In this document: one piece after another, positions 726-42,100 of the stretch | Layout: each line of letters opens with the position of its first letter | Numbering within the stretch: position 1 is the first letter of the stretch | Assembly: GCF_036971445.1 (NCBI RefSeq) | Contig: NC_091481.1 | Location: forward strand, 73,346,001 to 73,410,000 | Direction of reading: 5' to 3' | From: Narcine bancroftii | Taxonomy: Eukaryota | DNA length: 64,000 nt | Notes under the pieces: generated by a model | Told to the model about the DNA's origin: nothing | Database searches by the model: none | What the model saw: the letters and a program-made list of their open reading frames with translations, nothing else | Translations under genes and position numbers: made by a program

Positions 726-1461
726 TTTATACTTGTTTTTAATGTGCTTTACCTCCTGTGAGGCTGCATCTGTATGTTGTGCTTGTGTGTGTGAGACAAA
801 TCCCCATTTGTGTGTGATGATGTTACTTCAAGATACTGGGCAAATCAGAGAATCTCACTGTGCTCTGAATTACGTGTCACTCCATTTAAATGTTCCCAAA
901 ATAGTCGAGTTTGGGGACCAATTATTTGGGTCAAATTTGGGGGGGGGGGGGTCGATGTTTACATGGATATTACTTTTGACCGCAATAAGTACCTGCGTCA
1001 CTCAAAGCGTCGGGATGGATAGAACTGAGAGGTAAATCCACAGTCAGGGCATTAGGAGCTCGGATGGGCGGGTGGCCAGGCCAAGAATCCGTGGTCAGAG
1101 TGCCAGGACCTCAGATGGGCGGACAGCCAAGGCCAGAAATAGGGAGTCGACCTTTTCATGGGTCATACAGAAATCACACGATTTTTGGCCAAAGGGGGTG
1201 TCGACTCTTACATGAGTGTAGACCCCATGTATACCGTATGTACTCGTAGAATGGTCTGATCTATTTCTAGACTATTTTTATTCTCGCTATGATGAAAGGA
1301 TCGGACCCGAAGCATCAACCATTCTTCTCTTCCACTGATGATGCTCGACCCACTGAGTTCCTCTGGCGAGTGCTTTTCCCTCAACTTTCAGCATCTGCCC
1401 TCTCCTGTGTGTGTCCGACTTTGATTGTACACTTGGCTGACAACCTTGACTTTCCTCACAG

Positions 1462-1600
1462 GGAGAGCTGAGCTACGAGGAGAGAGAATACGAGCCAGGT
1501 CAATATGCCACTGTGACTGTCAGTGGGAAACCATTCGATGAGGGTTCGGGTGAAGGAGTCGTGAAACTCCTCAAGTATCTTGGAGGAAGCAATGAAGAAG
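1462..1600 (+). CDS. HEBP1: Heme-binding protein 1 (SOUL/HBP family), internal coding exon (exon 2)
   Basis: Boundaries ctcacag|GGA...GAAG|gtactg, 139 nt. Translates [46 protein letters not shown], matching the HEBP1 pattern YEER...ATV...KPxDE...KYxGGxN. Exon 1 is not found in the window. Confidence 0.92.
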
Positions 1601-2159
1601 GTACTGAGAGTTGTGGTCAAGCTTTAAAAGTGAGGGGGAGGTTCAAGTTTATTCCCATCTGACTGTACATATAGAAGCAGACGAAACAGCGTTTCTCCAG
1701 ACCACGGTGCGCACACAAGGTGGTATAAAGGTATAATTATTTTTATTAATATTGAAATTTCACATCCAAAAATACAGAGAACTTGCAGATATTCATGAAG
1801 ATAGGTTACACTTAAATCATTTTGTCCAAGTCTCCCCACATTTTAATCAAACAGATTATATTGTGTTGATATTGTACAGAAAGAAAATCTAAACCCATGA
1901 CAAAGAAAGGAGGAGTTTGACCAAAAAATAAAGAAAAAGAAGACAGAAATCTTTTCAGTGATAAATGACCTAATCTCCACCTTCATCACAAATCAACGAT
2001 TATAAAAGTTACTCAAAAAGGGTCCCCACGGAGTTTGAAAATTTGCATTCAAATCAGACATTGATCATCTAATCTTCTCTAAATTGAAACATGATGTGAC
2101 GTCACGTAACCATTAATTTAAAATAAATATATGTAAATATTTGGGATAATTTATGCAGT

Positions 2160-2535
2160 TACAGGACACTGCTCATCAGTCTCACAGTCTGCGGGAAGAA
2201 GCTATTCCCCAGCCTGGCCATCCTGTACCTTCTTCCTCATGGTAGTGGGTCAGTGATACTGTTCGTTGGATGGAAAAGGTCCTCGATAATTCATTGACCC
2301 CTATTTAAGCAACGCTCAAGGAGACCCCAGGGATCCTCTTGGCCGTCTTGATGACCCTCTGTATTGACTCCCAGTCCAATACTTTGCAACTACTGTCCCA
2401 CACAGAGATGCAGTCGAACAGGACACTCTCGATTGTGTTGTGAAACGTTCTCAACCTCCTGAGTAAGTGTAGGCGTTGCTGCACCTTCCAGACTAATGAG
2501 GAGGTGTTGTGGGCCCAGGACAGTTTGTCCTTTAT
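2160..2535 (-). mobile_element. Rex1/Babar-like LINE 3' fragment
   Basis: Degenerate 'gggaagaagctattccccagcctggcc...gatgcagtcgaacaggacactctc...gtaggcgttgctgcaccttc'. Related pieces occur at ~23120-23600, 23820-24130, 33380-33980 and 50570-50860. Confidence 0.5.
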
Positions 2536-3758
2536 ATGTTCATGTGAATCACTGAATCGTCAACATCTCAATGTTCAGAACTGGAGAGCCACAGGCCTTG
2601 CCTTTACTGTGTCCATGCAGTTACAAAGGACAATCAAACATTCATCAACTGATTTTAAACTCAGCCAAAGCTTAGTGAAAAAGTTGGTCAAAGGGAGCAA
2701 GGATCAGGAAGGAAGTCTCCGAGTTTAGGATCTCACCAGCTGAAAGTGCTGTGGTTGATAGTGAAATCAGGACGGACAGAACATTGGGAGCAGGAGTCAG
2801 CCACTATGGCTGATCTGACCCTGGATTCAACTCGACCGACCCACCTGTTCCCCATAACCCTTAATTCCTTGAACTGTGCAAAAATCTACCTGACTGTCTG
2901 AGGTATATTTAATGAGGAAGCCTCCACATGGGCAGAGAATTCCACTGAGAGCAAGGAGGTGTGTGGTGTACGGCTTGGGAGGGAACGCGTCTGTGAATGT
3001 CCATCTGAGGAGCTGGAGTTGAGACAGATAAGGGGAGAGTGTATTCAAACACTTGAGATGCTGATGGGCTTGATGAGGACGTGTTGAAATCTTTTTGGGT
3101 CGGACGAGCGAGAGAATGCAGTCATTTCAAACAGGTGCCTAGAAATTTCTGGAACCTCTGGAATTCTCTGCCTCTGAGGCCAGTCCATTAGAGATCCTTA
3201 ACCCTTGGGACTCTGGGTAATTTTAACCTTTCATAATATACACTCCGGACTGGGTCGATGGGTAAACCTTGACAGTGTGAACACTGGAGACAGAGTATAG
3301 AACTTGTTTGTGGTCCCTGAACACAAAGGATTAAGAAGGAGGTAGAACAGTTTGAAAGCTCGAGGAGGTGAGGCTTGGTGGGACTGGCAGGGAAGAGGAT
3401 ATCAGCCCTGGTGGGGCAGGGTCTGGGAACCGAGAAACTTTCTCCCTGCTCCTGCTCCCATTTCCTCGTGTTTGCTCTCTCTTGAGGAGAATCCTGGAGA
3501 AAGGTGAGTTGGGATGCGGCAGTGGCCATCAGTGAGGGGTCAAGATCTCGTGTGAGATCCAGACCCATGGCACTACCTGAGTGGAGATTACACGCACCTT
3601 CTGGGTTTCAGGGTTTGTCCCACAACCTAGAGAACAGGTTACAGGAGAGTGGGGTTGGTGGCTGAATAACTCCCTCCTGCCAGAAGGGGAATGGTGGGCT
3701 GGGTCTGTTGGAGGTGGGGAGGGGAGATTGGAGCCTCACGCCTGTCGCTGTTCCCTAG

Positions 3759-3939
3759 GACTGCAGCTCGGGATGACTGCTCCAGTCAGTCTGAAAGTCC
3801 ATCCAAACGAGAGCGGGGAATTGCAGTCCAGCGTCGAGGCCCAGGTCCGCATTCCCAGCCAATTCCAGGACAATGTTCCTAAGCCGATGGACCCGAGTGT
3901 TGAGATCCAGTATCTGGAGGGCTTCACAGTCTATTCCAC
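3759..3939 (+). CDS. HEBP1: Heme-binding protein 1, exon 3
   Basis: Boundaries ttccctag|GA...TCCAC|gtgagt, 181 nt, phase 1 to 2. Translates (G)LQLGMTAPVSLKVHPNESGELQSSVEAQVRIPSQFQDNVPKPMDPSVEIQYLEGFTVYS(T), containing the SOUL-domain MTAPV motif. Confidence 0.93.
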
Positions 3940-5199
3940 GTGAGTGTGGTGAGGGTCACTGCTTGCTATCAGCCCAGAGGGGGCAGACCCAGCGGGGGCC
4001 AAGACAGTGGTAGTTGCCAGAGCCACCAGAGGATGATCAGCCAAGTCTGACCATCCACAGGTTGGGGCTGGGGTCCCTGGGCCACTGGTGTCTGGAGCTA
4101 AACCATGTGATGGTGGGTGGTCCAGAGATGATACCCCAGCCCCATCTGGGTCCCTGAACCTGAGTCTGCCCTCGATAAGGGGCAGAGGCTGCACCTGGTG
4201 AAGCCGAAGTTGGGAAGGTGGGGTGGTTGTATCTCTGGGCCACCAGACTGTCCAGCCGGGCTCTGGTCTCACTCAGGCATAGGATGGATTCCAGGTCCAG
4301 TCAGGGTCCAGCTGGACCCCAGGATAGGACTGAGAGCACGGTTGATGGGGTTCTGAATTTCCATGGCACCTCTCATGACCACTCAAATACTGACCAAGGC
4401 CAGTGTCTGTGTCCTATCCAATAGCCAGAGACCCCCTAAACATTCACATGGAAAGGATCAAAATTTCATAAATAAATTAGGACGTGGTCCCATCACATTT
4501 GCCCCTCCCACCGTGGGAAGCTCCCTCACTGCCTCTCTCATGGAGCTCCCTCAGTTCCATCCTGCCAGCAGTCAATGCTCCTTCACTGGATGGCCATTCA
4601 ATTATGAGCAGAATAGGACCATTCAGCCCATCAAGTCTGCTCCACAATTTGAATCATTGCTGATGTATTTTCCCTCTGCTGTTGCATCTGACCTCAATGC
4701 CAGGTTCAATACCTGCTTCAGCTGGTGTCAATGCCTAGGTGTCACAGTCCAGGGGAGAAACAAATCAACCAGGATGCCTGCTCTTAATTGTTGTCAAACA
4801 GGAGTATCTACAGACGCTGGGTTTGTAAGGCAATGCACAGACATGCTGGAGAAACTCAGTGGGTCACACAGCATCTATCGGAAATTAAGGCACTGAATGA
4901 AAAAGGAGAGGGCGGTGCCTCGACAAGGGCCAGGCCCAAGTGTTAGTCAACACACTGAAGTGCTGGAGAAACTCAGCAGCTCTTTTCAGCTTCTATAGGA
5001 GACAAAGATATTTCGCTGATGTTTCAGGCCTGAGCCCTCCAAGGGAATATCAGAAAAGGCAGAATCAGGAAAATATCAGAACGTCTCCGAATTCAAACAA
5101 TGGGGAAGAATCCAGACCAACAAAAGGTATGATCATGGACTTGTAGAAGGTAGAATTTATAATGTCTGTCCGAAAGGAGACCGGGAACAGAGAGACGAT

Positions 5200-5670
5200 G
5201 GGGGGGGGGGGGGGGTGTGGTGATGGGGTAGTTTACAGAGAAGTCGATGTTAATGCCATCCGGTTGGAGGGGACCCAGACGGAAGATGAGATGTTGTTCC
5301 TCTAATTTGCGGGTGGTCTTACTCTGGCCATGTATGAGACCATGGACGGACATGTTGGCAAAGGAATGGGATGGGATGGAGAATTGAAATGGGTGGCCAC
5401 TGGGAGATCCACGTTATTGCAGCTGACAGATTTCCTAGTCTTCATCCAGCCTCTCTGATGTAGAGGAGACTACAGCGGGAGCACCAGATGCAGTCGACGA
5501 CCCCTGCAGATTCACCAGTGAAATGTTGCTTCACTTGGAAGGACTGAATGGTGCAGAGGGAGGAGGAGTGGGCCCAAGTGGAGCATCTCCTGTGGTCACA
5601 GGAGTCGGTTCCAACCTTTCCTTTCCTGGATCCTGCGTGACCTGCTGAGTTTCTTCAGCACATTGGTGTG
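5200..5670 (-). mobile_element. Penelope-like element fragment (GIY-YIG endonuclease region)
   Basis: Reverse complement reads ...FQVKQHF...SAGVV.CIWCSRC...MSVHGL...TTRKLEEQHLIFRLG.LQP.GIN, the typical C-terminus of a PLE endonuclease. Confidence 0.7.
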
Positions 5671-5884
5671 TTGATTTTAATTATTACCCTGAGGATCAAC
5701 ACATTCACATCGTGAATGATTCTCACCACAGTCAAATATCTCGCTGTTACTCTGTGGTCATGAGACCCTTGTACCACTGCATCGGTCGTAGGTTTTGGAG
5801 AGGTCAGAGTGACTGGCTGCACTCAGCTCCCTTCGGCTGCTGAGGGTCTGCTCCATCATTCTCCCCTGTGGTTCATCCCTGCAG

Positions 5885-6092
5885 GCAGTTTGGTGGTTAC
5901 GCCAAGGAGGCCAATTATGTTGAGTTTGCGGGGAAGCTGCAGGAGGCACTAGGAGATGCGGCGCCCTTTCACCGAAACGTCTACCTCTGTGCTGGCTACG
6001 ACTCGCCCATGAAGCCCATCGGCAGGAGGAATGAAGTGTGGTTTTTGAAGAAGGAAGGCGGGAGTTCAGGTGCGCAGTTGAGCTCGCAGTGA
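5885..6092 (+). CDS. HEBP1: Heme-binding protein 1, last coding exon
   Basis: Acceptor ccctgcag|G CAG TTT GGT. Translates [56 protein letters not shown]...*, with SOUL motifs FGGY, AGYDSP and RRNEVW. Phase joins exon 3. Confidence 0.93.
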
Positions 6093-9560: not shown

Positions 9561-11895
9561 ATATATTATTCCTATGGACCCTGTGAGACTGGCTGAGTTC
9601 CTCCAGCATCTCTATTTATACTAGCTGCTGGGTCCAGAGAAATCAACCACAGTGGATCTCACTGACCAATCACTTCTGTCGTAACAAGAAGCTGCATTTA
9701 AAGAGTGTGCCTTCACCCTGAAACTTTAAACAGGATCTCAGCTGACATTGTTCACTGTGATCTTCCCTGACGATTATTCTGCCAATCATAACTGACAAAG
9801 CAATATCACAGCTTATTGCTTCATCTGCTGTGAGGGTGTTGCTTTCAAGAGGCGTAGAGGCCAAGGCACATGAAAAGCTTCCCACTCTGAACAACGTGGA
9901 GCAATTTGTATCTGTCGAACGGGGGCCGGATTTAATGCCTATAAGAGTCAAGGCAACTCCAGCCCACACTGGTTCTGTGGCATAGAATCAAGCAGGGACT
10001 GAGGATTCATCTGCAACAGGTACATCTGAAAGGTAACGACCTTTCTGATTTTGTTGGCGGTGTTTATTTGGGTGGAGGCTACAGGTGGTCACACTGGGGA
10101 TCGACCAGGTTGGTGGTGCCCACCATCGCTTCTTCATTGATCCAGTGTCCTGCGATGGCTATATCCCTCCCCTCCCCTGCTCATCTGTCCCACACCAACA
10201 TCCCCTGGAAGCAGAATGTCCCAGCCTCACTGCCCCATCTTCCTTCTTGTTCAGACCGTTACTGTCACGCTGCTCTCCAACATGCGCTACTGCTTCCTGT
10301 AGGGACTTCCTCTAACTGATTAGTGGGATGAGGGAAGCCAGGGACTTTGGTTCCTGGGCCAGTGATTGCATCTCCCTCTTCACAGAAGTCAGAGGTGAAA
10401 CAGGGCATGTATAACCAACTCAGTTTACCTTCTGACCACATATTAGCTTCGATTGCTTCTACCTAGCTCTGCGGCCCCATCGACCTCAGCCCCCACATCA
10501 GCTCCTTGCTGCTCCATACCCTCCTCCATACCCTTTTATAACTCTAGATGGAGTCGCCACAGTGACACCACAGTGGGCTTCCTCCCAACTCTCAGCAAAC
10601 AAACTCACCCAAAACTTTCCCTCCCCCCCCACCTAATATGCAGCATCTCGAGAAAGGGATCCTGGTGTAAAACGTTGACAGTCCATTTATCTCCGTGGAT
10701 GCTGGCTTGATGAGACCCACATCTTCCAGTTTGCTTCTTTTCCAGGACAAAACTAGGTACGATTGGCCCCCAGTTCCCTGACCGTTCATTCCCTCCATTA
10801 GAGAGACATGACTGCAGCGGAACACGAATGTCTGCACGTGGTGTGATTGTAGTTAATGCACAACATTGGTGCAGCCAGTCCCTCAGCGCCACTCCTCCCC
10901 CTGCCCATTGTCCCCTTCTCCCCTATTGTCCCCTTCTCCCCCCTTGACCCCTGCAGTGTGTACGCTGGAGTTCTACTTGGACACACATCCAGGACCTGGT
11001 GGAGCCACCAAGAAAGACATGGGCAGCAGACACATGGCCACACTGCGTGAAATCAAGTACCTAGCATGAAAGGAATTGCTGTTCCAGCGTTGCCACAGGG
11101 TTGTAATTCTTTGTCCTTTCTCCACGAGCACAGTTCAAGGAGGCAACTCACTGCAGTCCACAGGGGGAGAAAGGAAGGGCTTTTTTTTTCTCTTCTTCAG
11201 TTCTACTTCTCAACTGTATCCACCTCTTACCCATTAACTAGTGTGATCCTCCCTCTGCCCCTTCCTCCCTCCTCTCTTCCACCCCCTCTCCCCACCTTTT
11301 ATTTCAGCTTTTTTTCATACCTTGGCGAAGGGCTCAGGCCTGAAACGTTGGTTACCTTCTCTTCCTGTGATGCTAAGTGACCTGCCGAGTTTCTCCAGCA
11401 CGTTGGTGTATCGCAGGGGCAATGACCACGAAGTTGGCTGCAGCACCAACTTCCCACAGAGGGTGTATGTGGAAAACCTTTGATGGCTAAGCCTTCAGCG
11501 GCTTGGGTTTGAATTCTGCGGTTCCCTCCTGAAACCTTACCAATTCTCCTTCCTGCTCAAACGCCCCAATGTGGCTTGGTGTCAGATTTTGTTGAATGAT
11601 TCATCTCTGAAGCACACTATTTTGATGTCACATTAAAAGTATTTTTTCCTTGTATAGAACATTACAGAACAGTACGGGCCCTTCAGCCCATGATGTTTTG
11701 CTGACCTATAATACTATATAAATGCAGTTTGTTGTTACTCTTTCTGAATCCGTGTCAGGCTAATAATAATGATACAAAGGTTCCCATACTGAGTTCTGCC
11801 TTCTGAAACAATGCTTCTCCAGTGCTGGAATGGAAGGATAGGATATTGTAAGGGGGAAATCACATTCACTGACCCTTTACCAACCTTTGAACTCT

Positions 11896-12202
11896 TCACT
11901 GACCATTGACCCTTGACCTCTCCCTATTGCTGACGATTGATTGCCTCCTGACCGCTGGCCTCCTGCGGACAGTGTTGCGGGATTGGATGTGCGGTGAAGG
12001 GTGGTGGGAATTCTGATGACCGGTCTGCTTCCTTGGCACCTTCCTCGTCACCACGTGCTTGATCTTCACAGGATTTCCATATCCCACCTTGATGACAGCT
12101 CTCTCCAAGCCCGCCAGACTCTCAGTCAAATCTCCGAGTCGCTTCTTCAGAGCTTGAGCTTCTCGAAACAGATCGTCCAGTGCTTCAGAAAATGGCTGAA
12201 TC
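11896..12202 (-). CDS. Uncharacterised secreted coiled-coil protein, last exon
   Basis: Acceptor ctctctctcaccctccag|G ATT CAG. Translates (R)IQPFSEALDDLFREAQALKKRLGDLTESLAGLERAVIKVGYG...RVNGQ*. Phase 2 matches the preceding exon. Confidence 0.85.
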
Positions 12203-12299
12203 CTGGAGGGTGAGAGAGAGCTGGGGTCAGAGACATCAGGCAAGATAGCTGACATAGAACAGCAGAGTCCTGACTCCTTGAGGTTGAAAGCAATGACTC

Positions 12300-12680
12300 A
12301 TAAGAGAGAAGGTTTATTGACTAGGATCAGTGTAGACAAATGAGGGGAGATTTGATAGAGGTACAGTATATAAAATGATGAGGGGTACAGATAGAATAGA
12401 TGCAAACAGGCTTTATCATTGAGGTTGGGTGAAACAAGAACTGGGGGACATGGGTTAAGGGTGAAAGGAAAAAGTTTAGGGGGAACATGAGGAGGAACTT
12501 GGTCACACAGAGCGGTGGGAGTGTGGGATGAGCTGCCAGCTGAGGTGGTGAATGTGGACTCAACTTTAACATTTAAGAAGAATTTGGACAGGTATGGAGG
12601 CTATGAAATGGATACTAGGTGAAATAATTTGGCACAGACCAGATGGGTCAAAGGCCTGTTTCTGTGTTGTGTTCTCTGGT
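12300..12680 (+). mobile_element. CR1-clade LINE 3' end
   Basis: 'tgaggggagatttgatagaggtac...ggacatgggttaagggtgaaagg...gaggaacttggtcacacagagcggtgggagtgtgggatgagctgccagctgaggtggtg...ggcctgtttctgtgttgt' is the CR1 terminal motif. Confidence 0.75.
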
Positions 12681-13184
12681 TCTCTCATTTACACATTAAC
12701 TATGCTGGGAGTTTCTGTCTACCCTACCCTCTCAGAGTTCCAAATCCTCTGGGTGAAGAAACCTCTCGTTATCTCCTCTTCTGCTTTTCTTCGAGTTGTC
12801 CAAAGTCTGTGCTTTGTAGTTTTTAACTCCTTTCCAAGGAGAAATAAGCCCCTCTATTATCCAGACCCCTTCATTCAAAATCCCTTCCACCTCTTATGTT
12901 CTGAAGAAAATAACGGCTGCCTAACCAATCTTTCCTTGTTACTAAAATGTTTCCAGTCCTGCCAACATCTTTGTAAATCTCTAAGGCTGGGAAATCTGTC
13001 CGTGAACCTGTGCCAGGTTAAGCCTGCTCCAAGAAAATAGTTCATATTAAACACAGGACACAGGTCAGTGGTTCCCAGGCAATTTTAGTATTTCTTTAAA
13101 TAGTGAAAATTATGGGAACTGATCTTAATATAAAAATATTATAACCCCCCCCCCCAATTTCCCCCATCTCCTTTAGATCTCTCT

Positions 13185-13350
13185 GTCTCTCTCTCCCCTT
13201 TCCCTCCCTCTCTCCCCCTTTCCCTCCCTCTTTCCCACTTTCCCCTTCTCTCCCCTTTCCCTCCCTCTCTCCCCTTTCCCTCCCTCTCTCCCCTTTCCCT
13301 CCCTCTCTCCCCTTTCCCTCCCTCTCTCTCCCTTTCCCTCTCTCTTTCCT
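13185..13350. repeat. Polypyrimidine minisatellite, ~20-bp unit (ccctttccctccctctctc)n
   Basis: Tandem copies visible directly. Confidence 0.85.
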
Positions 13351-14077
13351 CATCATATCTAATTAACTCCTCCTCCTCCCCATTCTTCCCCCTTTCTCTC
13401 CCCAGCCTTTAAATCAGTCACCTGTATTTTTTTTACTCATACCTTGAAGAAGGGCTCAGACTGAAACGTCGGTAATACATCTTTACCTCCCACGCTGCGA
13501 GACTGGCTGAGTCCCTCCAGCATTTCTGGGTTTTGCCTACAATCACATTGTCTGCAGACTTTTGTGTTTCACAATATATCAAAATGCTTTTAAGCATTTA
13601 AACACAAAATTAATTGATTAATAATTCTTATTTTGTTCCTGGTGTTACTGAATAAATTTTTGTCGGCATGAGCAAGTTCTGCTGAATGGTCTGTGTCTAC
13701 GTTGTTTGATTCCGTGACTCTATCGCACATCTTTATGTCTCGTGATGATGGGAAGGCAGGGGTTGGTGGTCGTGAAGGGGTTGTGGAGAGAGACCTCCTT
13801 GGCTATTAAAGCTGTTGCATGAAATCCCCCTTTCTCTCCTCCCCTCTTCCCTCTCTTCCCCCTCTCCATCTTGCCCTCTCTCCCCCCCTCCACTGTCTAT
13901 TCTGTCTCCCTCCCTCTGTCACACCACCTCCTCCTCACTCCTTCACACTAGCACACTCCCTGTCGACACTCTCCCCTTTCACTGCAATCTTCCTCCTCTC
14001 CGCCTGCTGCTCTCCTTGCTTCATCCCCCTTCTTTCCCTCCACGTCCCCTCTCTCCCATCTCCCTTCCTCCTCCTAC

Positions 14078-14207
14078 CTGGAGTAGTCGGGCAGCACATC
14101 CTGAGGTTTGCTGAGCACGGTGTCCTTCACTTGTTTAAAGATTCTGTTTCCCCATTGGTTCAGGAGACGGGTGATGCTGCCGACCCCATTGATATTCACC
14201 CTGTCAG
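14078..14207 (-). CDS. Uncharacterised secreted coiled-coil protein, exon 3
   Basis: Boundaries ttttgcccag|CT GAC AGG GTG...TAC TCC AG|gtagga, 130 nt. Translates (A)DRVNINGVGSITRLLNQWGNRIFKQVKDTVLSKPQDVLPDYS(R). Confidence 0.85.
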
Positions 14208-14744
14208 CTGGGCAAAAGCACAGAGACACAAGGAAGTACACCACAGCAAAAATTCACCGCAACCTTCTCTGTAAAACAGAGTTCTCAACACCACGTAACG
14301 TTGGCCATTGTATTCCACCCCATTACACAACCAACAATCTTTCATCCCACTGACAATCCAATATTCTCCACATCTTGTAAACAATGCCCACTGTATTCTA
14401 CAACCAATTACACAACCAATGTTCTCTGCAACCCATCATTAGATCCATAGAACCTTACAGCACAGAAGCAGGCCCTTTGCCCCATCTAGTCTGTGACCTA
14501 GTCCAGTGGTTCTCTACCTTTTACATTCCACTCATATAACACCTTAAGTAATCCTTTATGCACCACAGACCACTATGGCATTCTGTGCTCTGTGGTTAGT
14601 AAGGGATTAAGGTAAAGGGGAGTGGAAAAAGGTTGAGAATAATAATAATAATCCCCCTAAAGATCTCACCTTTACCCTAAACCCACGGCCCCTGTTCTTG
14701 TCCCACCTAACCAGTTTGGTGAAAATGCCTGCTTGCATTGACTC

Positions 14745-15005
14745 TGAGTGTGTGTGTGGGTATGTGTGTGTGGGTGTGAGTGTTTGTGGGTGTGTTTATG
14801 GGTATGTATGAGTGTGTGTGTGGGTGTGAGTGCGTGTGTGGGGGTGTATGGGTATGTGTGAGTTAGTGTGTGTGGGTGTGAGTGTGGGTATGTGAGTGTA
14901 GGTGTGTATGGGTGGGGGTGGGTGTGGGTGTGAGTGTGTGTATGGGTGGGTGTGAGTGTGTATGGGTGGGTGTGTGGGTAGGTATGTGTGTGTGGGTGGA
15001 TGTGC
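14745..15005. repeat. Degenerate (GT)n/(GTGTGG)n microsatellite
   Basis: Visible directly. It accounts for the HT-rich ORFs in the track. Confidence 0.9.
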
Positions 15006-15047
15006 GGGAGGTTTGAAGCCAGGACATTTGCTGCTTGGCCATCCTAC

Positions 15048-15164
15048 CTCCTTCTCGGAAGTTCCATTTCCAGTGCTCACTGACTTGTTGCTTCTCACCC
15101 TGAGCCAATGAGAAGAGCAGCGTCAGGAATGCAAGGTGCAAACTCGTGCTGGGCACAGCCAACC
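15048..15164 (-). CDS. Uncharacterised secreted coiled-coil protein, exon 2 (signal peptide)
   Basis: Boundaries ctggtcttgcag|GG TTG...GAA GGA G|gtagga, 117 nt. Translates (G)LAVPSTSLHLAFLTLLFSLAQG-EKQQVSEHWKWNFREG. An alternative in-frame ATG lies at 15195 (accATG). Confidence 0.8.
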
Positions 15165-16339
15165 CTGCAAGACCAGAGTGAAGGGGGTTACACATGGTCC
15201 CACAGGTCAGAAGGAATGCACAGTCTTAATCTGGCTTCAAGGAGAGGGGGTTCCATATTCACCTCAGCAACTTGTAATGATGCTCAGAAGGCTATATGGC
15301 CCATTAGTTTCATCCTGGATTTTGGGATGTAATCCTATCGATCTGAAAACCAATGGTGAAAGTGGTCCTTTTTATGTTGGCTCAGGATAGACAGTAACTT
15401 CCCTGAGAGTGGATGTCTGGCCTGGAACTGGGGGTTTTGGACCAGAGCAGATGAGAACTGTCCCATGGAGAGAACTGGTCCACTTGAGAGTTCAGAGTCA
15501 GTCCCATGTGGAGGTTTGGGCCCCAGAACAGGAACAATCTGTGTTGCAGGGAGGGCTGACCAGTGAGGGGAGGCAGGGGTAGGCCTGTCCTTGGGGAAAG
15601 TGTTGGCTGCTGGAGAGGAGGGTGGGTTGATGGGGTTGGTACTGAGGATGGGGTTAATATTCCCTCTGCATGAACCATGGACCAGTCCCCCAGAGGTACC
15701 TCCATGACTCCATGTCTCTACCTCTGAGGAGCCCCTTCAGCCCGACCAATTCTGTCACTTCTCCCATGGTTGGTTCGTTTCAGTGAAGGACCTTTTTCCA
15801 ACCCACTGAAAGTACAAGGAGATGGAACAACAGAAATAAACCAGAGGGAGAAAGAATCCTGATTGGACAGGGGGATTTCCCGGAATCCTCGACTCCAGCA
15901 AGGCACAACATTCACTGAATCAACCTTCACTTCCCACCAACACTTCCAAAGGTTACCCACTGTTAGCAGTAGAATCCAACCGCAATGAAATAAGTGGGTT
16001 ATCATGCCACATAGAACAGGTGGTTCAGCCCATCAAATCCATGCTACCTATTTACACCGATCCCACCTTCACCCATTTTATTGTCTCAAATTACCACCCA
16101 CTCCACCCTGAATCTACCCATAGATTCAACAACATGTCATCACCTCATACTCCATCTGGATTACCTCCAACCAGATGACTATCTTCGACCTCTGGTTTCC
16201 GTCAGCCTCCACCTCTGTCACTCCCCTTCCCCTGTCTCCTTTCCTCCAGCTCTCCATTCACACAGCCACCCCCCTTTCCTCTTCTGCCCTCCTATCCATG
16301 TCCAATTAAGTTGGCTTTGCTTCTCCTGCCCTTTCTTCC

Positions 16340-17135
16340 CTGCCCTTTATCCACTTTTCTGCCAACTTACACCTTGACCACAAATTCACTTGGTCCATCT
16401 CTAACAAAACTCTCCCTTTTCTTGATCTCGCTGTGTCCATCTCGGGAGACAGCCTCTTGACAGAAATCTTGTACAAACCCACCAATTCCCACAACAACCT
16501 CAACTACATCTCTTCACACCCTGTCTGCTGCAAGGATTCCATTTTCTCAATTTGTCCATCTTTGTTGCATCTGCTCCCAGGATGAGGACTTCCATGCCAG
16601 ATAATCAAGGTGTCCTCTTTCTTCCAACAATGTGGCTTCCCCTCTATCACCATCAACTTGGCCCTCAGCTGCATATCCTCCATTACCCCCACATCTGGCT
16701 TGGTCCCCTCTGCCCCACACACAAGGTTAGGATTCCTCTTGTCCTTTCCTACCACCCCACTGGCCTCCTTGTCCAACACATCCTCAGCAATTTTCCACCA
16801 CCTACTACATAATCCCATCATCTGACACATCTTCACTTCTGCCCTCTCTGCCTTCAACTAGGAACTGCTCCATCCATGACTCCCTTGTCCACTCCTCCCT
16901 CCCCACCAATTGCCCCCTTGACACCTATTCCTGTGACCACAGGAAATGCTGCATTTGCACCTACACCTTCTCCCTCAGCACCATTCGGGGCCGAAACAGT
17001 CCTGTCAAGTGAAGCAACATTTCACGTGAATCTGTAGGGGTCATCGAATGTATCCAGTAATCCCATTGTGTTCTCCTCTCCATCAGAGAGACGGCACAGT
17101 CTAGAAGATCGCTTTGTTGAGCCCCTAGGCTCTGT
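16340..17135 (+). mobile_element. Penelope-like element fragment (RT C-terminus to GIY-YIG)
   Basis: Reads KFTWSISNKTLPFLDLAVSISGDSLLTEILYKPTNSH...SSHP..CKDSI, then TIRG.KQS.QVKQHF.CES.GVI. Confidence 0.8.
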
Positions 17136-17479
17136 CTACTCCAGTGGCACGGGGGGGTGTTCACTGAGAGATGGGGTGTGACTCCATCCTCACTCCGAAC
17201 AAAGGAGTGAGGCTGATGTTGAACTTTGCAACTTAGAAATTCCACACTAACAGGAAACAAAACCTGACTCCCCGCTGCTTTGGGAACTTAAATGATTTAG
17301 CAAAAGTAACATTTTGTAAAATAATTATTGATACATTAAACGACCTTTCTCTGCCTTTAAAAAATATCCTCAACGGCGGGTAAGTGATTCCACATCACCC
17401 TCCAATGCACACGGCAACACCTTCAACACCAGTACGTAAATCCAGTGTCCACCTTGCTGCCCAGCTTGAAATAGGTTAC

Positions 17480-17498
17480 CTGGAATTCTTGGCCTCAT
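17480..17498 (-). CDS. Uncharacterised secreted coiled-coil protein, putative first coding exon (MRPRIP-G)
   Basis: ATG AGG CCA AGA ATT CCA G|gtaacc. Phase 1 joins the 15164 exon and supplies a basic signal-peptide n-region. Another in-frame ATG lies upstream at 17540. Confidence 0.55.
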
Positions 17499-20139: not shown

Positions 20140-20470
20140 AGGGGAGTGTGTGTAGACACAAACATGTCTGTGGAACACAAACAGGGGACTGTGCATAGAT
20201 CTCATACAGGGGGCTGTGCGTGGAACATGTATAGGGAACTGTGTGTGGAACACGTACAGGGGACTGTGCGGACAGTGCATGCAACACATACGGGAAGTGT
20301 GTGTGGAATAAGTACAGGAGACTGTGTGAAGCAAGAACAGGGGACTGTGCGTGGATCACATACAGGGGTCTGTGCGAGGAACACCTATAGGGAACTGTGT
20401 GTGGTTCTCATACAGGGGGCTGTGCGGACACTGCATGGAACACGTACGAGGACTGTGTATGGAACACTTA
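20140..20470. repeat. ~25-bp minisatellite (ggaacacgtacaggggactgtgtgt-like)
   Basis: About a dozen diverged tandem copies are visible. Confidence 0.8.
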
Positions 20471-34589: not shown

Positions 34590-34960
34590 CTGATGCCTTG
34601 GGCGGGGCCAGATCACGAGTGTAAATAATCAGTGGCGTCACATCGGCGTCGAGGCGGTTCAACCGGAAGCAGAAACAGCGATCGGGGTAAAGGTCGTTGC
34701 TAAGCTAAAGATGGCGGCCAGGTCGGCTGCTTGAGGCTGCGGCTGTTTTCGGACCGCGTTCACACTTATTTCGGCGGTGGGGGGGAGGAAGAAGGCGGTG
34801 CAAACATGGGACGGAGGTCGACCAGTTCCACCAAGAGCGGGAAGTTCATGAACCCGACCGACCAGGCCCGTGAGTGCGGGGGAGCCCGAGGCGAGGGTCG
34901 GGGGCGGCGAGGCCTGGGGCCTAGGCCTGGGGATCGCAGCAAAAGCGAAACTGAATTGTG
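34590..34960 (+). promoter_or_regulatory. WBP11: WBP11 CpG-island promoter / first exon
   Basis: CpG-dense. GC box gggcgggg at 34600, half-CRE cgtca at 34636, ETS ccggaag at 34663 and YY1-type aagatggcggc at 34708. No TATA box seen. Confidence 0.8.
34806..34869 (+). CDS. WBP11: WW domain-binding protein 11, coding exon 1
   Basis: MGRRSTSSTKSGKFMNPTDQA(R), the conserved WBP11 N-terminus. Donor C|gtgagt, 64 nt. Confidence 0.97.
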
Positions 34961-35049
34961 ATTAAAACGTCAGGACAAAGAAGGCTCGGTCGGTTTTAAT
35001 TTGACGCATTAGGATCCGCAGCTGGTGCTGAACCTCTTAATCTCCAATA

Positions 35050-36225
35050 AGTCAGAACGATGCTGCAGAAACTCAGCTGGGTCACACAGGGAACTTCATA
35101 GAGCAAAGATAAAGGGACATCACCCACGTTTCGGGCTTGAGCCCTTCATCAAGCTACGAACAACATGTAGGCAGACACCCAGTCAGTCCCCTGCAGTTGC
35201 TCCGTCTCTGCTGCATCTTCCCAAGATGAGATCCTCCAGTCCAGATCGTCTGAAATGTCCAGCTTCTTTCACATCCACCACCACCAACTCAGCTCTCACC
35301 CACATCTCCTCCATTTCCCACTCATCTGCCTTTACCCCCAGACATAACACTTGTCTATAACTACTATTCCACCAGCCTCCGCATCCAACACATTATTCTC
35401 TGTAATTTCTGCCACCTACAACATGATCCCACTACTAGACACATCTTCCCCTCTTCACTTTCCATGGGGACTGCATTCTCCGTGACTCCCTCATCCACTG
35501 ATCCCTCCCTACCAACTGCCCCCCTCTGGCACCTTCCCCTGTGGCCACAGAAAGTGCCATTCTTGCACCCACACCTCCCCCACCACCATTTGAGGCCTCA
35601 AACAGTCCTTTCAAGTGAAGAAATATTTCACTTGTGAATCCGTGGGAGTGATCTGGTGCTCCCATTGTGGCCTTCTCTGTATCACAGAGATTAGGTGTAG
35701 ACTGGAAGATCGCTTTGCTGAGCACCTTCATTCTGTCTGCATAGGGAGAGAGATCTCTCAGTGGCCAACCACTTCAATTCTGCCTCCCACTCATGTATCT
35801 GTCCATGGCCTCGTACTATCCCAGGAAGACCACTTGTAAATTGGAGGAAAACGTGATTTTTTGTCTGGGCATTCTCCAACCGAATGATATTAACATTGAC
35901 ATCCAGTTTCTGTTAACCAACTCTCCATTCTCCCTTCCCCCTTGTCTTCTTTGCCTTAGCTCTCCACCCCTTCCCTCTGTATTCACAGAGCCCTCTCTCC
36001 TTCCCTTATGCACCTACTACCTCTTGCCTTTGGGCCTGTGCTTCTCCCCCAGTTTGTTGGGGCACCTGCTGTCATTATTTTCTATACCTTGATGAAGGGC
36101 TCAAGCTCGAAACATTGGTCACGTATCGTTATATTTGCTATATAAAGTACACTGTTTGACCTGCTAAGTTTCTCCTGCATTGTTTTTACTTAAACCATGG
36201 TATCTGCAGATTTTCGTTGCACTTC
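35050..36225 (+). mobile_element. Penelope-like element with inverted terminal pseudo-LTR copies
   Basis: 35060-35175 is an imperfect reverse complement of 36060-36185. The interior reads FQVKKYFTCESVGVIWCSHCGLLCITEI.CRLEDRFAEHL (GIY-YIG). Confidence 0.8.
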
Positions 36226-36519
36226 CAGAGATGAAGGGGTGAATGTATGATAAGAGATTGAGGTGTCTGGGACTATATTCACAAGAATTTAGAAGAATGA
36301 GAGGGGATCTTATAGAAACAAAAAATTATGAAAGGCGTAGATAAAATAGAAGTAGGTAAGTTGTTTACATTGGTAGGGGCTTGGGGTTTATTCTTTGGAG
36401 TGTAGAATTAGGGACAATTTCATAGAGGTGAACAAAGTCACGAGAGGAATAGATTAGATGAACACAGAGTCTTTTGCCCACCAAACGGGAATCAGTAACC
36501 CGAGGTCATGTTTTAAAAA

Positions 36520-37830
36520 ATGTTTTTATTTATAATGTCGCAATATACCAAATCAATAAAGATATATTCAGACTTAGTACTTGTATGTACACAGTGACAT
36601 TTACCATTTTCTCCCCAGTCCCCTTCCCTCTCCACCCCCCCCAATTAACTATAGAAAAAGAAGGAAACAGAGCAGAAAGAAAAGAAGAAAAAGTGTGTCA
36701 TCTAAATAGTACATGTTTCACTCTTTCCATAAGTATAACATGTCTCATTAAGAGTTGGAGGTTTTAAATTGGCAGTTACTAATAAACTATACATGGGTCC
36801 CAAATTTGTTCATATTTGAGCGTAATTGTCTCTTAAATTATAGATAATTTTTTCTTATGGAATATACTTGTTCATTTCTATGTCCCACCGTTGTATTTTC
36901 AAAGGTGTTTCCATTTTCCAAGTTATCATTATACATTTTTTGCTGCTGCCTAATGCAATCATATTAAATCATTTTTGAGATCAATCTAATTTTAATTGTA
37001 ACTCTTTATCCTTTATATTGCTTAACAGAAAGATTTTTGGGTCTTTTGGTATCTTATTTTTTGTAATTGGATTTAATATTGAATTTAAATCCTCCCAAAA
37101 GTATTTTACTTTTGCACATGTCCAAATTGAATGTACTATTGTACCAATTTCTTGTTTACAATGGAAACTTTTATCAGATAGTGTAGGATTCCATTCTTTT
37201 AATTTTTGAGGTGTAACATATAGTCTATGGAGCCAGTTATATTGTATCATCCGATACCGAGCATTTATTGTGTTAGTCATGGTATGCGCGCATAGATCCA
37301 TCCAAGTTTCATTATTTATTTGTATATTTAAATCTTTTTTCCCAACGTTGTTTGGGTCTGTACATTACCTCATCTTTTCCCTTGTTTTGTAATTTGATAT
37401 ACATATTTATAATAAATTTTTTGACTATCAAAATGTCTGTAATTAAATATTCAAAGTAACTAACTTCAGGCAACCTTAAATATGTTTTTAATTGATAATA
37501 TGAAAATATTGAGCCATGGGATATTTCATATTTATCTTTTAGCTATTCAAATGTCAATAGAGTATTGCCCAGAAAGCAGTCTTTTATTCTTGTAATTCCT
37601 TTTCTTGACCATTCCTTAAAAAATATATTATTCATTGTAAAAGGAATTAATTGATTTATTTTAGTAACATATTTGATGTTTGGTAGATTATCATCTTTTT
37701 AATATATGATGTACAATTGGTAAATTGTTATGTTGCACTAGTTTCTCATTCCATTTATAGAGTAAGTGTTCAGAAACATTTTCCTCTAGTTTATATAGTT
37801 CTATCCTAAGCCAAGCCAGTTTTTCTCATA
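36520..37830 (-). mobile_element. L1-clade LINE 3' fragment
   Basis: ORF2 C-terminus INARYRMIQYNWLHRLYVTPQKL..WNPTLSD....CKQEIGT..H..WTC..V..FW (zinc-knuckle region), followed by the 3'UTR. Confidence 0.85.
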
Positions 37831-38735
37831 CCCAGAGGTCATAAGTTTAAGGTGAGGGGAAAAAATTTAACAGGAACCCAAGGTAACTTTTTTTTAACCC
37901 AGGGTGGTGAGTGCATGGAAGTGGTACTATTGAAGAGGTGGTGAGATGGTTGAAGCAGGTGATATTGCAATGTTTTAAGAAATGGGCTAAATGCAGGTCG
38001 GTGGGACCTTTTGGATATCGTTGGACCCAAGGGACTGTTTAGGGCCTGTTTCCGTGCTGTATGAATATGGCAATTAATTATTTGTAAATTTTTGCTCAGT
38101 GCTGTCTCTTGTGGTGTCTCCTGGTCTGTCTGTGTCTGTCTCTCTCAGAAGTTGATTTAAAAGAGGCAAATGCTTGAGTTCAGAGACTTTTCATTTGTGC
38201 ATTATTTTTAAATAAAGGTTTTTGGTCTGAAATACCAACTCCATTTCTGCCTGATGTTTAGTGTATTTCTGTCATTTTCTGGATTAATTTCACAAAAATA
38301 GCTGGTGTGCTCATTGTCACATTATGGGATTTTAGCAGCATGCTCTTCAGAAACTATCATATCACCATTTACGGAGCGGAAACAGGCTATGTTGGCCTTT
38401 CGAGTCTGCACCCTCTTCAGGCAATGGTCCCGGTAGATCAAGTCGATGGGGGAGGGGGCGAAGGGACACTCCATTGATCCTCTCTGCCACTCTTATGGAT
38501 TGATCTCTGATCCATTTCACCGCAGCAACTGTCCCCACTACGCTTACATTAGGTTTGTTTTGCTATAATACAACGATTTGTACTTCAATAATTGAACTGA
38601 TTTTAAAACTTGTTGGATGTCTTGAGGTTGTGAAAGGTAATTAGATTTTGCTCTGGAAAATTTATGAGGGGGATTGTTTTTTTCTTTTCCTTTCACCTTC
38701 CAATCTGATTCGCACTCTTTATCTTTATTAAACAG

Positions 38736-38767
38736 GAAAAGAGGCCAGGAAGCGGGAATTAAAAAAG
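38736..38767 (+). CDS. WBP11: WBP11 coding exon 2
   Basis: aacag|GA AAA GAG GCC AGG AAG CGG GAA TTA AAA AAG|gtaaga; KEARKRELKK; 32 nt. Confidence 0.95.
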
Positions 38768-39124
38768 GTAAGATGGGCATATTCATAGGATACATGTAAT
38801 ACAAACTTTTGCATGATGTATGTGCCATAATATTTTTGGTCAGAAAAGGGAGCAATGACATTAAATATTAAACTTCATTAAAGCCGTGGACCTATCAGCT
38901 CAGCAGGCCTTGTCAGGATGTTCCCTGCAGGTGAACAGTAGTTCTAATCTTCTCGCCCTGTTGACATGTCTCTTCAAACTTTTGGAAAGAAATTTTGCCT
39001 CTCATTTTTTAATTGTTTGCATTCTTAACCCTTCATATAATGTTCCATTGATTGTGTGATGGGTTTATTATGAAGAACCTTTTGTGAATCTTAGTCATTC
39101 CAAGCAGGGCTAATCACTTGCCTT

Positions 39125-39350
39125 GGTGGTATGGTAAGCGTAGTGGTTAGCGCAATGCCTTTACAGCGCCAGCAATTGGGACTGGACTGAGGTTCAAATC
39201 CTGCACTGTCCTTAAGGAGTTTGTACGTTCTCTGGTTTTCTCTAGAGGCTCTGGTTTCCTCCCACCGGGACTGTAGATTAATTGGGGGTAAATTGGAGGC
39301 ATGGACATGTGGGCTGAAATGGCCTGTTACAGAGCTGTATGTCTAAATAA
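39125..39350 (+). mobile_element. tRNA-derived V-SINE (HE1-like)
   Basis: A/B-box-like head 'gtagtggttagcgcaatgc...ggttcaaatcc' followed by 'aaggagtttgtacgttctc...ggtttcctcccac'. Other copies: 44665-44878 (+), 46625-46800 (-), 47520-47720 (+), 54383-54610 (+). Confidence 0.75.
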
Positions 39351-40405
39351 AATTAAAACATAATGTTGGAGAAACTCAGCAGGTCAAACTTTATACGACA
39401 AAGATAAAGGAACAGAACCAACATTTCATGCTTGAGCCCTTCATCAAAGTATGGACAAAATGTAGGCAGGCGCCTAGTTTGTTTTGAATATTTTACTTTT
39501 GATTTTCAAAGACTCACACAAAGTCAAACAAACAACACAATCTCTTTCTACAATAGTACATAACATACAGGGTCTATTTTTTCCCTCACCCCTCTCCTTT
39601 CCCTCCCATACCCTAATACAACAAAGAAAATATTATATAAATTAAACAAATACAAAGAACAGCATTTTGTTAAAGTCAAAAACATTTAAGGGAACTTTAG
39701 AAAAACCCAAAGTAACTTAAAATAAAAAAGTTAAGGAACAAAATACAAGAGCACGTTATTTGTGCCACAACCCACTTGACTGATTTCAATCCTTTCACTA
39801 CTGGCATGGATTGTTGCATTTCCTTTATTCAGAAGGGATATAATTATATCTGCGCACCAATGCATTGTATATAAGGTTGTCACATCCTAATGAAAGCACC
39901 ATATTTCTTCCTCGTATTGTATGTGATTTTCTCCAGGGGAATACAACTCTGCATTTCCATATTCCATCATGTAATATTTAGTTGGGAGACGGACTTCCAC
40001 GTGACCGCTATACACTTTCTGGCTACCGACAAGGCGACCTTCACAAACTGAATTAGGTGTTTGGATGGCAGGTGCCTGGTTCATTGGTTATGTACCTTTA
40101 CCTTTGTGATATAAAGTATACAAAGCACTTTGTCCTAATTTTCTCTCTGGTAGCTATTGAGTTGAAAGAAAGGAAAATCTAAAGAAGCAGTTGCCATCGT
40201 AGCATGGAGAGAGGAGAAACAAGAGTGATTGAGATGGGTGATTTAAAAAGACCATCCAGTGGATAGTTTCAGCTGCACGGTTTCTTGGCTCCTCATTGTG
40301 TTCGTTCAGTAAAGTTTCCAGCAATGTTTTTTTTAATTTATCTTCAAATCATTTGAATTTCTGTGGGAGTAGATTCCATGTTAAATGATGCTTTGTATTT
40401 AACAG

Positions 40406-40499
40406 AACAAGAAGCAGCGAATGATGGTGCGGGCAGCTGTGCTCAAGATGAAGGACCCCAAACAAATAATCAAGGACATGGAGAAACTGGATGAAATGG
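40406..40499 (+). CDS. WBP11: WBP11 coding exon 3
   Basis: NKKQRMMVRAAVLKMKDPKQIIKDMEKLDEM(E); AG/GT boundaries; 94 nt. Confidence 0.97.
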
Positions 40500-41001
40500 G
40501 TAAAGAACAATTGGTAAAATATTCCAGCAAAGAAGTACAGCACAATTTTATTAAGAATATATTAAGATATTTGGGTAACCCCATTATATTTTAATTATGT
40601 TACTGTCCAATTTAATTTTTGGAGTGAGATTGACAGCTGGATTGGATATCACAATATAACCCCTAATATTTCATTCTCAACAGCAACTATCATGCCATTT
40701 AAGTCTAATTCCCATTAAAATTTGAGTATCTGGCTCTATTTATTGGATGACTTAATGTTCCAGCTAGTTTTTATTTAGAATAAACAGCAAACTTTAAAAT
40801 CTGATCAGTATACATCTGGTTCATGGTCAGGAGACCACAAGGCTGCATCATGTTGTCAGGATGGGGTTTGGCTCATTGTTTTTGTTTGCAACAGAATTTT
40901 GATGGTATTTCATGTGCAAGTTTGATACTCGATTCTTTCAGTGCAAAGACGTTGGATTGGTATGCCAGTGTGAGATGACCTTTCCCTCCAATATTCTGCA
41001 G

Positions 41002-41198
41002 AGTTCAATCCTGTTCAGCAACCCCAGCTCAATGAGAAAGTATTGAAAGATAAGCGGAAAAAGCTCCGAGAGACTTTTGAGAGAATTCTACGTCTGTATG
41101 AGAAGGAAAATACAGATTTTTATAAGGAACTGCGAAAGCTTGAGACCGAATATGAACAGAAACGATCCCAACTCTGCCAGTTCTTTGATGCTGTCAAG
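41002..41198 (+). CDS. WBP11: WBP11 coding exon 4
   Basis: FNPVQQPQLNEKVLKDKRKKLRETFERILRLYEKENTDFYKELRKLETEYEQKRSQLCQFFDAVK; 197 nt. Confidence 0.97.
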
Positions 41199-41319
41199 GT
41201 GAGGATGAGTTGGAGCCTTTGTCTGCATTCAGAAATGTTTACATGTAAATTTGTTATATGGAATATTCCCGCTTTTCATTTCTGTTGAAGGTTACCATAA
41301 AATAGTGATATTTTTAATT

Positions 41320-42100
41320 GCTGCACCATTTCATCAGATGCAAGGATCGACAACAAGATAGACAACACTCTCCAAGGCAAATAGCGCCTTTGGAAGACTA
41401 CACAAAAGAGTCTGGAAAAACAACCAACTGAAAAACCTCACAAAGATTAGCGTATACAGAGCCGTTGTCATACCCACACTCCTGTTCGGCTCCGAATCAT
41501 GGGTCCTCTACCGGCATCACCTACGGCTCCTAGAACGCTTCCACCAGCGTTGTCTCCGCTCCATCCTCAAAATTCATTGGAGCGACTTCATCCCTAACAT
41601 CGAAGTACTCGAGATGGCAGAGGCCGACAGCATCGAGTCCACGCTGCTGAAGATCCAGCTGCGCTGGGTGGGTCACGTCTCCAGAATGGAGGACCATCGC
41701 CTTCCCAAGATCGTGTTATATGGCGAGCTCTCCACTGGCCACCGTGACAGAGGTGCACCAAAGAAAAGGTACAAGGACTGCCTAAAGAAATCTCTTGGTG
41801 CCTGCCACATTGACCACCGCCAGTGGGCTGATATTGCCTCAAACCATGCATCTTGGCGCCTCACAGTTCGGCGGGCAGCAACCTCCTTTGAAGAAGACCG
41901 CAGAGCCCACCTCACTGACAAAAGACAAAGGAGGAAAAACCCAACACCCTACCCCAACCAACCAATTTTCCCCTGCAACGGCTGCAACCGTGTCTGCCTG
42001 TCCCGCATCGGACTTGTCAGCCACAATCGAGCCTGCAGCTGACGTGGACCTTTACCCCTCCATAAATCTTCATCCGCGAAGCCAAGCCAAAGAAAAGAGA
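41320..42100 (+). mobile_element. RTE-clade LINE, 5'-truncated and young (AviRTE-like)
   Basis: Reads KANSAFGRLHKRVW...TKISVYRAVVIPTLLFGSESW...QLRWVGHVSRMEDHRLPKIVLYGEL...CNGCNRVCLSRIGLVSHNRAC, with 3' tail 'aaatcttcatccgcgaagccaagccaaagaaaaga'. CpGs are retained. Confidence 0.9.

Follow-up and report, generated by a model that had tools for sequence, protein, structure and literature searches.

A four-exon gene for a predicted secreted coiled-coil protein, located between HEBP1 and WBP11 in the electric ray Narcine bancroftii

The 64,000-nucleotide stretch of Narcine bancroftii contig NC_091481.1 analyzed here (positions 73,346,001 to 73,410,000, forward strand; hereafter the window) contains, on its minus strand between HEBP1 and WBP11, a four-exon gene that homology to proteins of other vertebrates identifies as real rather than a chance arrangement of open frames. 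Its predicted product joins a signal-peptide-like segment to a conserved helical core of some 90 residues, ending in a leucine coiled coil, and to a strongly basic tail. On balance we favour the view that this product is a secreted, trimeric, polycation-tailed protein, which would serve as a multivalent ligand for acidic matrix proteins or sulphated glycans in bone, scale, tendon and dermis. The existence of the gene is already on record, as a RefSeq prediction in the ray and under placeholder names in other species, and we found no description of the family to which it belongs.

Gene structure

The gene model and the segments of its product are laid out as follows, in window coordinates.

17480..17498, minus strand: coding part of exon 1, from the ATG at 17498; GT donor; collinear with a Mobula protein (P0005)
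15048..15164, minus strand: exon 2, with the hydrophobic signal-peptide-like segment (residues 17-27) and the conserved W40-G45 motif
15154..15156, minus strand: codon GTG (Val10), at the place where members of the family usually have their start codon, as judged by its alignment column
14078..14207, minus strand: exon 3, with the first of the predicted helices (helix 1, amphipathic, residues 51-78 approximately) and a conserved Pro-containing linker
11896..12202, minus strand: exon 4, with the coiled coil, the basic tail and the TGA stop
12094..12192, minus strand: leucine heptad coiled coil, residues 93-125, with 3-4 hydrophobic spacing in 101 homologues
11899..12072, minus strand: basic tail, predicted to be disordered, residues 133-190 (11 Arg, 4 Lys, 5 His, 1 Glu)
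11298..11303, minus strand: candidate polyadenylation signal, the first AATAAA downstream of the stop

The four coding segments (19, 117, 130 and 307 nucleotides) add up to 573 nucleotides, or 190 amino acids and a TGA stop, in a frame that is open throughout. Each of the three introns has a GT donor and a CAG acceptor, the latter with a pyrimidine tract of 78-83%, and the exon coordinates, phases and reading frame put forward in the original prediction, which had been made without database searches, are borne out. That the gene is not a chance arrangement follows from two observations: exon 3 alone matches batoid proteins, and homologues break at the exon junctions. The search with the exon-3 peptide matched three proteins among five candidates, with identities of 100% for the N. 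bancroftii RefSeq 'uncharacterized protein', 86% for Mobula and 79% for Rhinoraja. Exons 3 and 4 are matched by proteins from sharks to birds, and exon 2 by those of batoids and several sharks, in each case with breaks at the predicted junctions, which rest on homology to these proteins of relatives; exons 2-4 also match proteins of sharks and rays as well as the RefSeq model of N. bancroftii. A cluster of seven unnamed batoid proteins, derived from assembled contigs roughly 1 kb long, carries the same three exons contiguously, which would imply spliced transcripts in a relative.

The RefSeq model (P0004) departs from ours in having a different first exon (16440-16372) and an exon 3 that is longer by 15 residues. 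This extension (14208-14253, minus strand) is absent in relatives and shows no AG at its acceptor in the window, and for these two reasons the four-exon, 190-residue model provides the better fit and corrects the RefSeq prediction. The RefSeq first exon (16440-16372, minus strand) was also considered and found less likely; the donor region at its aligned end differs from a clean GT junction. The peculiarities of P0004 are probably due to prediction error or to an assembly difference.

Translation start

The translation start is the weakest part of the gene model. Val10 of the window protein stands opposite a Met in each of the seven listed proteins of sharks and rays, and the two further Met residues of Mobula align with window codons ACG (15147) and TTG (15141). 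With GTG, ACG and TTG at these three places, the electric ray has no ATG within the signal-peptide portion of exon 2. The alignment hence indicates start-codon turnover in this species, with the loss of the start codon commonly used by the family. Exon 1 offers two in-frame ATGs, at 17498 (190 amino acids) and 17540 (204 amino acids), both of which lack a purine at -3. A further ATG, out of frame at 17559 (minus strand), opens an upstream frame of nine codons. The last eight codons of exon 1 find their best ungapped match in the 279-residue Mobula protein P0005, at a collinear position and with a score of 17 against 9 for the next match; no comparable signal was seen in Scyliorhinus. A weak Mobula match (expectation value, E, 0.02) lies at 17746-17579 on the minus strand, and exon 1 probably extends towards about 17750 as 5' untranslated region. 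Taken together, exon 1 looks real, and translation in the ray probably starts within it.

A displaced start codon invites the reading that the family is functional while the ray copy itself is decaying. The replacement of the usual Met by GTG, the weak context of both exon-1 ATGs and the short out-of-frame ATG at 17559 would all fit such a process, but the 573 coding nucleotides contain no stop or frameshift, the splice sites are intact, and the ray copy retains 26 of 28 conserved columns of its clade (25-28 in the 27 other proteins) on a branch of 0.16, against 0.21 for Mobula. Judged by its sequence, the ray copy does not look decayed, and we regard decay as highly improbable.

Family and taxonomic range

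The batoid profile recovered 158 proteins, and the 120 of them that are listed include sharks, a chimaera, lungfish, gar, bowfin and teleosts, and carry, where named, the designations si:ch211-243a20.3 or si:ch211-76l23.4. An exhaustive search returned 226 representatives at E up to 0.001, of which the best 150 were listed, and 30 proteins looked up by name came from birds, lizards, alligator, frogs, newt, sharks and fishes. The phylogeny (IQ-TREE, 59 rows, 182 columns, midpoint root), in which RefSeq P0004 stood in for the window protein, resolves three clades. Clade A (support 100/100, 35 rows) unites the ray protein, si:ch211-243a20.3 and tetrapod proteins to the exclusion of the paralogues; clade B (96/85) corresponds to si:ch211-76l23.4 and contains sharks and ray-finned fishes, with no tetrapod seen; and clade C (98/94) corresponds to si:dkey-282h22.5 and contains shark, teleosts, frog and birds. 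Fine branching within the tree is not reliable, because lungfish groups with ray-finned fishes. The ray gene is accordingly placed by this tree as the orthologue of zebrafish si:ch211-243a20.3 (UniProt A2BID0). The likeness to si:dkey-282h22.5 that had been suggested initially is correct as to family, but that gene is a paralogue: the window protein lacks the invariant Cys and the N-L-T sequon that precede helix 1 in clade C, and P0162, a protein named si:dkey-282h22.5, falls in a different clade from the ray protein.

Clade C (P0134, P0150, P0162, P0286) deserves a remark in its own right, for it combines an invariant single Cys with an adjacent N-glycosylation sequon, comprises at least two teleost sub-clades and is kept in birds and alligator. 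It is a candidate for a version of this coiled coil in which the chains are joined by a disulphide.

Orthologues belonging to clade A were found with a tetrapod profile in frogs, newts, lizards, snakes, turtles, alligator and birds. Among the 92 matches to this profile, none of the 73 that are named is mammalian, in a word-seeded, clade-A-directed search of protein databases that included no mammalian genome, and the nearest protein to each of the 19 unnamed matches comes from a bird, lizard, frog, skate or fish. No jawless-fish protein is named among the family matches listed. As judged from these sequences, the family extends from cartilaginous fishes through ray-finned fishes and lungfish to amphibians, reptiles and birds, but apparently not to mammals, in keeping with the earlier proposal of an ancient, uncharacterized jawed-vertebrate gene that might be missing from mammals. 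Searches of the literature, with supplements outside their reach, returned no family description, structure or functional study for the gene names and identifiers, nor any report of mammalian loss.

No significant Pfam, PDB or fold match emerged. No Pfam family exceeded its curated cut-off for three exon pieces, three batoid proteins and five other homologues, while PDB searches by sequence with two profiles gave generic coiled coils only (best E 0.32 and 0.0094), none of them significant. A protein atlas contained only the family's own unnamed clusters, and the chicken core found no named cluster there. Fold comparison by Foldseek yielded no significant match at E 0.001, and the best hit of the VIA fold search (Z 5.6, root-mean-square deviation 1.9, 45 aligned residues) involved generic long helices and is not significant.

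Protein architecture and self-association

The window protein has a single hydrophobic segment, at residues 17-27 (mean hydropathy peak 2.43), and no other, as expected from the signal-peptide-like N-terminus described initially; its hydropathy profile fits a signal peptide, and peptides of an orthologue occur in matrix extracts. The mature chain, of about 160 residues and 18.6 kDa, has an isoelectric point of 11.1 and, as anticipated, no cysteine. Conservation is concentrated in the helical core: 27 clade-A proteins are on average 54% identical to the window protein over residues 30-89 and 50% over residues 90-127, compared with 20% in the tail. The W, R and G of the W40-G45 motif are kept in 71/73 clade-A rows, and L84-P85 in the linker is invariant. 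The leucine heptad was likewise foreseen, and its core positions (93, 97, 100, 104, 107, 111, 114, 118, 121 and 125) lie in a helix in the models. The tail, whose basic nature had also been noted, preserves its charge and not its sequence, with a net charge of +5 to +24 in 47/47 rows. An N-x-T sequon is present in 12/13 clade-B and 14/15 clade-C rows, as expected of proteins of the secretory pathway, and in 1/73 clade-A rows.

Two AlphaFold models of the skate orthologue (mean predicted local distance difference test, pLDDT, 67 and 71; predicted template modelling score about 0.3) consist of two long helices flanking the Pro-containing linker, with an unstructured tail; the helices cover residues 42-69 (skate orthologue) and 84-119 (P0006). 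When residues 24-124 of the skate orthologue were modelled in three copies, the scores were 0.20, 0.44 and 0.42, with a median of 0.42 as opposed to 0.03 for the best of three controls; any two runs share 78% or more of their contacts, pLDDT is at least 51, and the interface is made of heptad core positions and helix-1 residues. In a calibration restricted to two-copy assemblies, the mark used for this score was reached by 21/30 solved pairs and 0/23 single chains, and in eukaryotes by 17/29 pairs and 0/30 single chains. At the end of the coil, a [RK]-h-x-x-h-E pattern at the g-a-d-e positions occurs in 32/73 clade-A, 13/13 clade-B and 14/15 clade-C rows, one clade-B row being probably a mis-binned clade-A protein. 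The pattern resembles the RhxxhE trimerisation motif, as far as the consulted part of its description goes (PMC5940361).

Several points weigh against a trimer. The three-copy test was calibrated on two copies, and among eukaryotic cases without an older solved relative just 1/7 passed; one of the three runs scored only 0.20, and three was the sole copy number modelled. Moreover, in the window protein the trimer motif begins with Ser in place of Arg, and its strict form occurs in just 31/73 clade-A rows. The models lend support to self-association through the coiled coil, and the trimer is not proven.

The chains of clades A, B and C might alternatively form one mixed coiled coil in place of homotrimers. 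They share a heptad register and have complementary residues at two core positions, with Val or Leu in clade A and Phe in clades B and C; the invariant Cys of clade C (15/15) would suit an inter-chain bond; and in the tables available to us clades A and C rise together in intermuscular bone (PMC11689531) and are listed together for the hypodermis (PMC10495112). Yet the homotrimer model already passes, clade B has not been seen in tetrapods, and the same tables place clade B in basal epidermis and scale-forming cells (PMC10495112) and show it changing in the opposite direction in the runx2b comparison (PMC11689531). A mixed assembly seems to us a slim prospect.

The main alternative is that the protein is a secreted paracrine ligand or prohormone, from which cleavage at K108-R110 or at the Arg cluster 168-170 would free a bioactive piece (e.g. 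residues 38-107) for a receptor. The protein is small and free of cysteine, its W-Y-R-x-G motif is very highly conserved, and zebrafish expression shifts with thyroid status and regeneration. Dibasic residues at 109-110 are found in 25/27 clade-A rows, where they represent a possible cleavage site, a point against the matrix-protein reading as well, and Arg pairs at 168-170 in 16-18/27. However, the 109-110 pair is dibasic in only 1/13 clade-B and 1/15 clade-C rows and lies mid-helix at heptad flanking positions, where Lys and Arg are expected anyway; the other dibasic sites of the tail are kept in just 4-6/27 clade-A rows; the window protein has no strict R-x-[KR]-R, and neither a conserved G-[KR]-[KR] amidation signal nor a conserved furin motif is present; and conservation extends over 90 residues instead of one short peptide. 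We consider a ligand or prohormone unlikely, if the likeliest of the alternatives; an uncleaved trimeric ligand is possible.

Expression of orthologues

The papers from which tissue data were drawn were picked for skeleton and skin and deal with zebrafish, other teleosts and chicken; the evidence in this section refers to those parts of the papers and supplements that were available. In a supplement on zebrafish skeletal matrix, A2BID0 is represented by two unique peptides in 11/23 samples (PMC3946537), distributed over caudal fin (5/5), adult head (3/3) and later vertebral samples (3/6), with none in larval (0/6) or juvenile head samples (0/3). Transcripts of si:ch211-243a20.3 and si:dkey-282h22.5 are up in both kinds of intermuscular bone (PMC11689531, Tables S11 and S13), and in the tails of runx2b mutants each of the three paralogues is altered, with log2 fold changes of 1.43, 2.40 and -1.65 in a contrast whose direction is not specified in the part consulted (PMC11689531). 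In regenerating scales, si:ch211-243a20.3 is up (log2 fold change 1.37, adjusted p 0.048) and its paralogues are unchanged (PMC8780716). Lists for zebrafish skin cells include clades A and C for the hypodermis and clade B for basal epidermis and scale-forming cells (PMC10495112).

Other data detract from this picture of a matrix protein. The tissue picture is biased, because skeleton and skin papers were chosen and none concerns this ray. The sole peptide row seen for A2BID0 has a posterior error probability of 0.14, and the protein is absent from the main text of the same paper in the portion available (PMC3946537). Clade A is listed for iridophores too, and marks cluster 42, in which pigment-cell and fibroblast genes are mixed (PMC10495112). 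The chicken gene appears in oviduct mucosa, where it is down after mating (PMC4625885), and the supplements of PMC8748784, one of five supplement sets searched, make no mention of the gene.

Expression in zebrafish skin (PMC10495112) and hen oviduct mucosa (PMC4625885), along with the isoelectric point of the mature chain, could be taken to point to a cationic host-defence protein of skin and mucosa, whose tail, free or displayed on a trimer, would kill microbes. Against this, the tail is not predicted by AlphaFold to be an amphipathic helix, the gene has a low-copy look, a slowly evolving core and no lineage expansions in the tree, and the protein was recovered from skeletal matrix in the data seen (PMC3946537). 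We find a defence role improbable.

Proposed function

Among the three functions suggested at the outset, binding to matrix or heparin is the one most supported, and the prohormone and antimicrobial precursor are weaker, because most dibasic sites of the tail are unconserved and the best-conserved one lies inside the predicted coiled-coil interface. For a trimeric matrix protein, the following sequence of events can be envisaged. Translation in the ray would start in exon 1, and the hydrophobic segment would take the chain into the secretory pathway, with a cut predicted by hydropathy near A27-G29. Residues 93-125 would then assemble as a parallel coiled coil, with helix 1 as a second contact zone. 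The three disordered tails, each with a net charge of about +14, would grip polyanions, a property that we infer from their composition, while the invariant W-Y-R-x-G and L-P-x-Y motifs may constitute a specific partner-binding surface. Finally, going by the zebrafish data, the protein would be retained in mineralizing and fibrous matrix, acting as an organizer or as a matricellular signal.

Genomic neighbourhood

The neighbouring genes confirm the location stated initially and are arranged as follows.

1450..6092, plus strand: HEBP1 exons (tested pieces 1450-1599 and 5844-6089), by protein match and SOUL family
40974..41201, plus strand: tested exon of WBP11, E 7.8e-32

The assignment to HEBP1 (E 3e-9, against 0.03 for HEBP2) is accompanied by a SOUL family match, and we take WBP11 to span about 34800-53930, from the list of open reading frames and the termini of the protein. 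The chicken orthologue LOC417962 (P0152) bore the older RefSeq name 'heme-binding protein 1 isoform X2' and yet has no SOUL domain, which suggests that it adjoins HEBP1 and was misannotated from neighbouring genes. According to a zebrafish supplementary table consulted in part, emp1 and atf7ip lie 21 kb and 211 kb away from si:ch211-243a20.3 on chromosome 1, and gsg1l and atf7ip2 lie 73 kb and 1.8 Mb away from si:ch211-76l23.4 on chromosome 3 (PMC8780716). Window neighbours, chicken name and zebrafish coordinates concur in assigning the gene to a HEBP1/EMP1/ATF7IP/WBP11 block. Human HEBP1, GSG1, EMP1, ATF7IP and WBP11 share 12p, and the paralogues GSG1L and ATF7IP2 lie on 16p. Given the zebrafish linkage and this human paralogy, clades A and B probably arose through the genome duplications of early vertebrates.

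The window holds a number of other elements. Within intron 1, the stretch 16310-16812 (plus strand) contains broken frames without a Pfam match; we presume that it and the 16440-16372 region are remnants of a Penelope-like retroelement, which Pfam did not confirm. A degenerate 25/50-bp tandem array lies upstream of the gene (20170-20464). An 81-bp tandem array of 6.3 copies with 96% identity occupies 48585-49095 in a WBP11 intron and is open in three frames on the minus strand. A fragmented long interspersed nuclear element with a reverse transcriptase domain (RVT_1, E 2.5e-22) is found at 56900-59800 (minus strand), and a similar frame at 41362-42042, within WBP11. Downstream of WBP11, two exon-like frames of a further gene, one of them acidic, are seen at 62830-63168 and 63672-63989 (plus strand), with no Pfam or PDB match, and a GC-rich stretch (about 60900-61500) lies upstream of them.

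Significance

Among vertebrate secreted proteins, a family like this one, predicted to be secreted and conserved from sharks to birds, for which neither a Pfam model, a name nor a functional study was found, is a rare case. If mammals do lack it, work centred on mouse and human would have missed it, and its probable location in the matrix of bone, scale and dermis would offer a handle on matrix components lost at the origin of mammals. In its broadest and more doubtful form, the proposal is that early vertebrate genome duplications gave rise to a three-member family, whose homo- or heterotrimers might organize the matrix of dermal skeleton, scale and tendon or signal through a receptor, and that all three members were lost on the mammalian stem. 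If true, the family would be a part of the non-mammalian programme for skin and skeleton that mammals are missing.

Comparison with known systems

The closest counterparts of the ray gene, si:ch211-243a20.3 (A2BID0) and chicken LOC417962, share its clade (35 rows, 100/100), its core and its genomic block; both are uncharacterized database placeholders, from which the ray copy differs by its shifted start. The products of si:ch211-76l23.4 (clade B) and si:dkey-282h22.5 (clade C) have the same architecture, linker and coil, with 47-56% coil identity to the window protein, but differ in an N-glycosylation sequon (both clades), an invariant Cys (clade C), Phe at two coil core positions and another helix-1 signature.

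Beyond the family, tetranectin (CLEC3B) and CLEC3A are described, in the part of the source consulted, as secreted homotrimers with a triple coiled coil and a basic heparin-binding segment, associated with matrix and mineralizing tissue (PMC13359685). In contrast to these, the ray protein has neither a C-type lectin domain nor its cysteines, and its basic segment is C-terminal. Tetranectin and CLEC3 chains in the PDB gave no sequence match at E up to 10, no lectin Pfam match was obtained, and the models contain helices only. The ray protein would function like the trimerizing and heparin-binding portion of tetranectin; the likeness is in working principle only, and the ray protein is not a member of that family. 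Matrilins and COMP/thrombospondins likewise use a short leucine coiled coil to oligomerize a secreted matrix protein, but the ray protein, with its mature length of about 160 residues, lacks their vWA, EGF and type-3 repeat domains. Actinodins are small, secreted, non-collagenous proteins of the fin skeleton that contain repeats and are regarded as lost in all tetrapods. The ray family does not belong among them, since it has no repeats and is kept in amphibians, reptiles and birds; it nonetheless resembles them in being small, predicted here to be secreted, linked to the fin skeleton and apparently absent from mammals.

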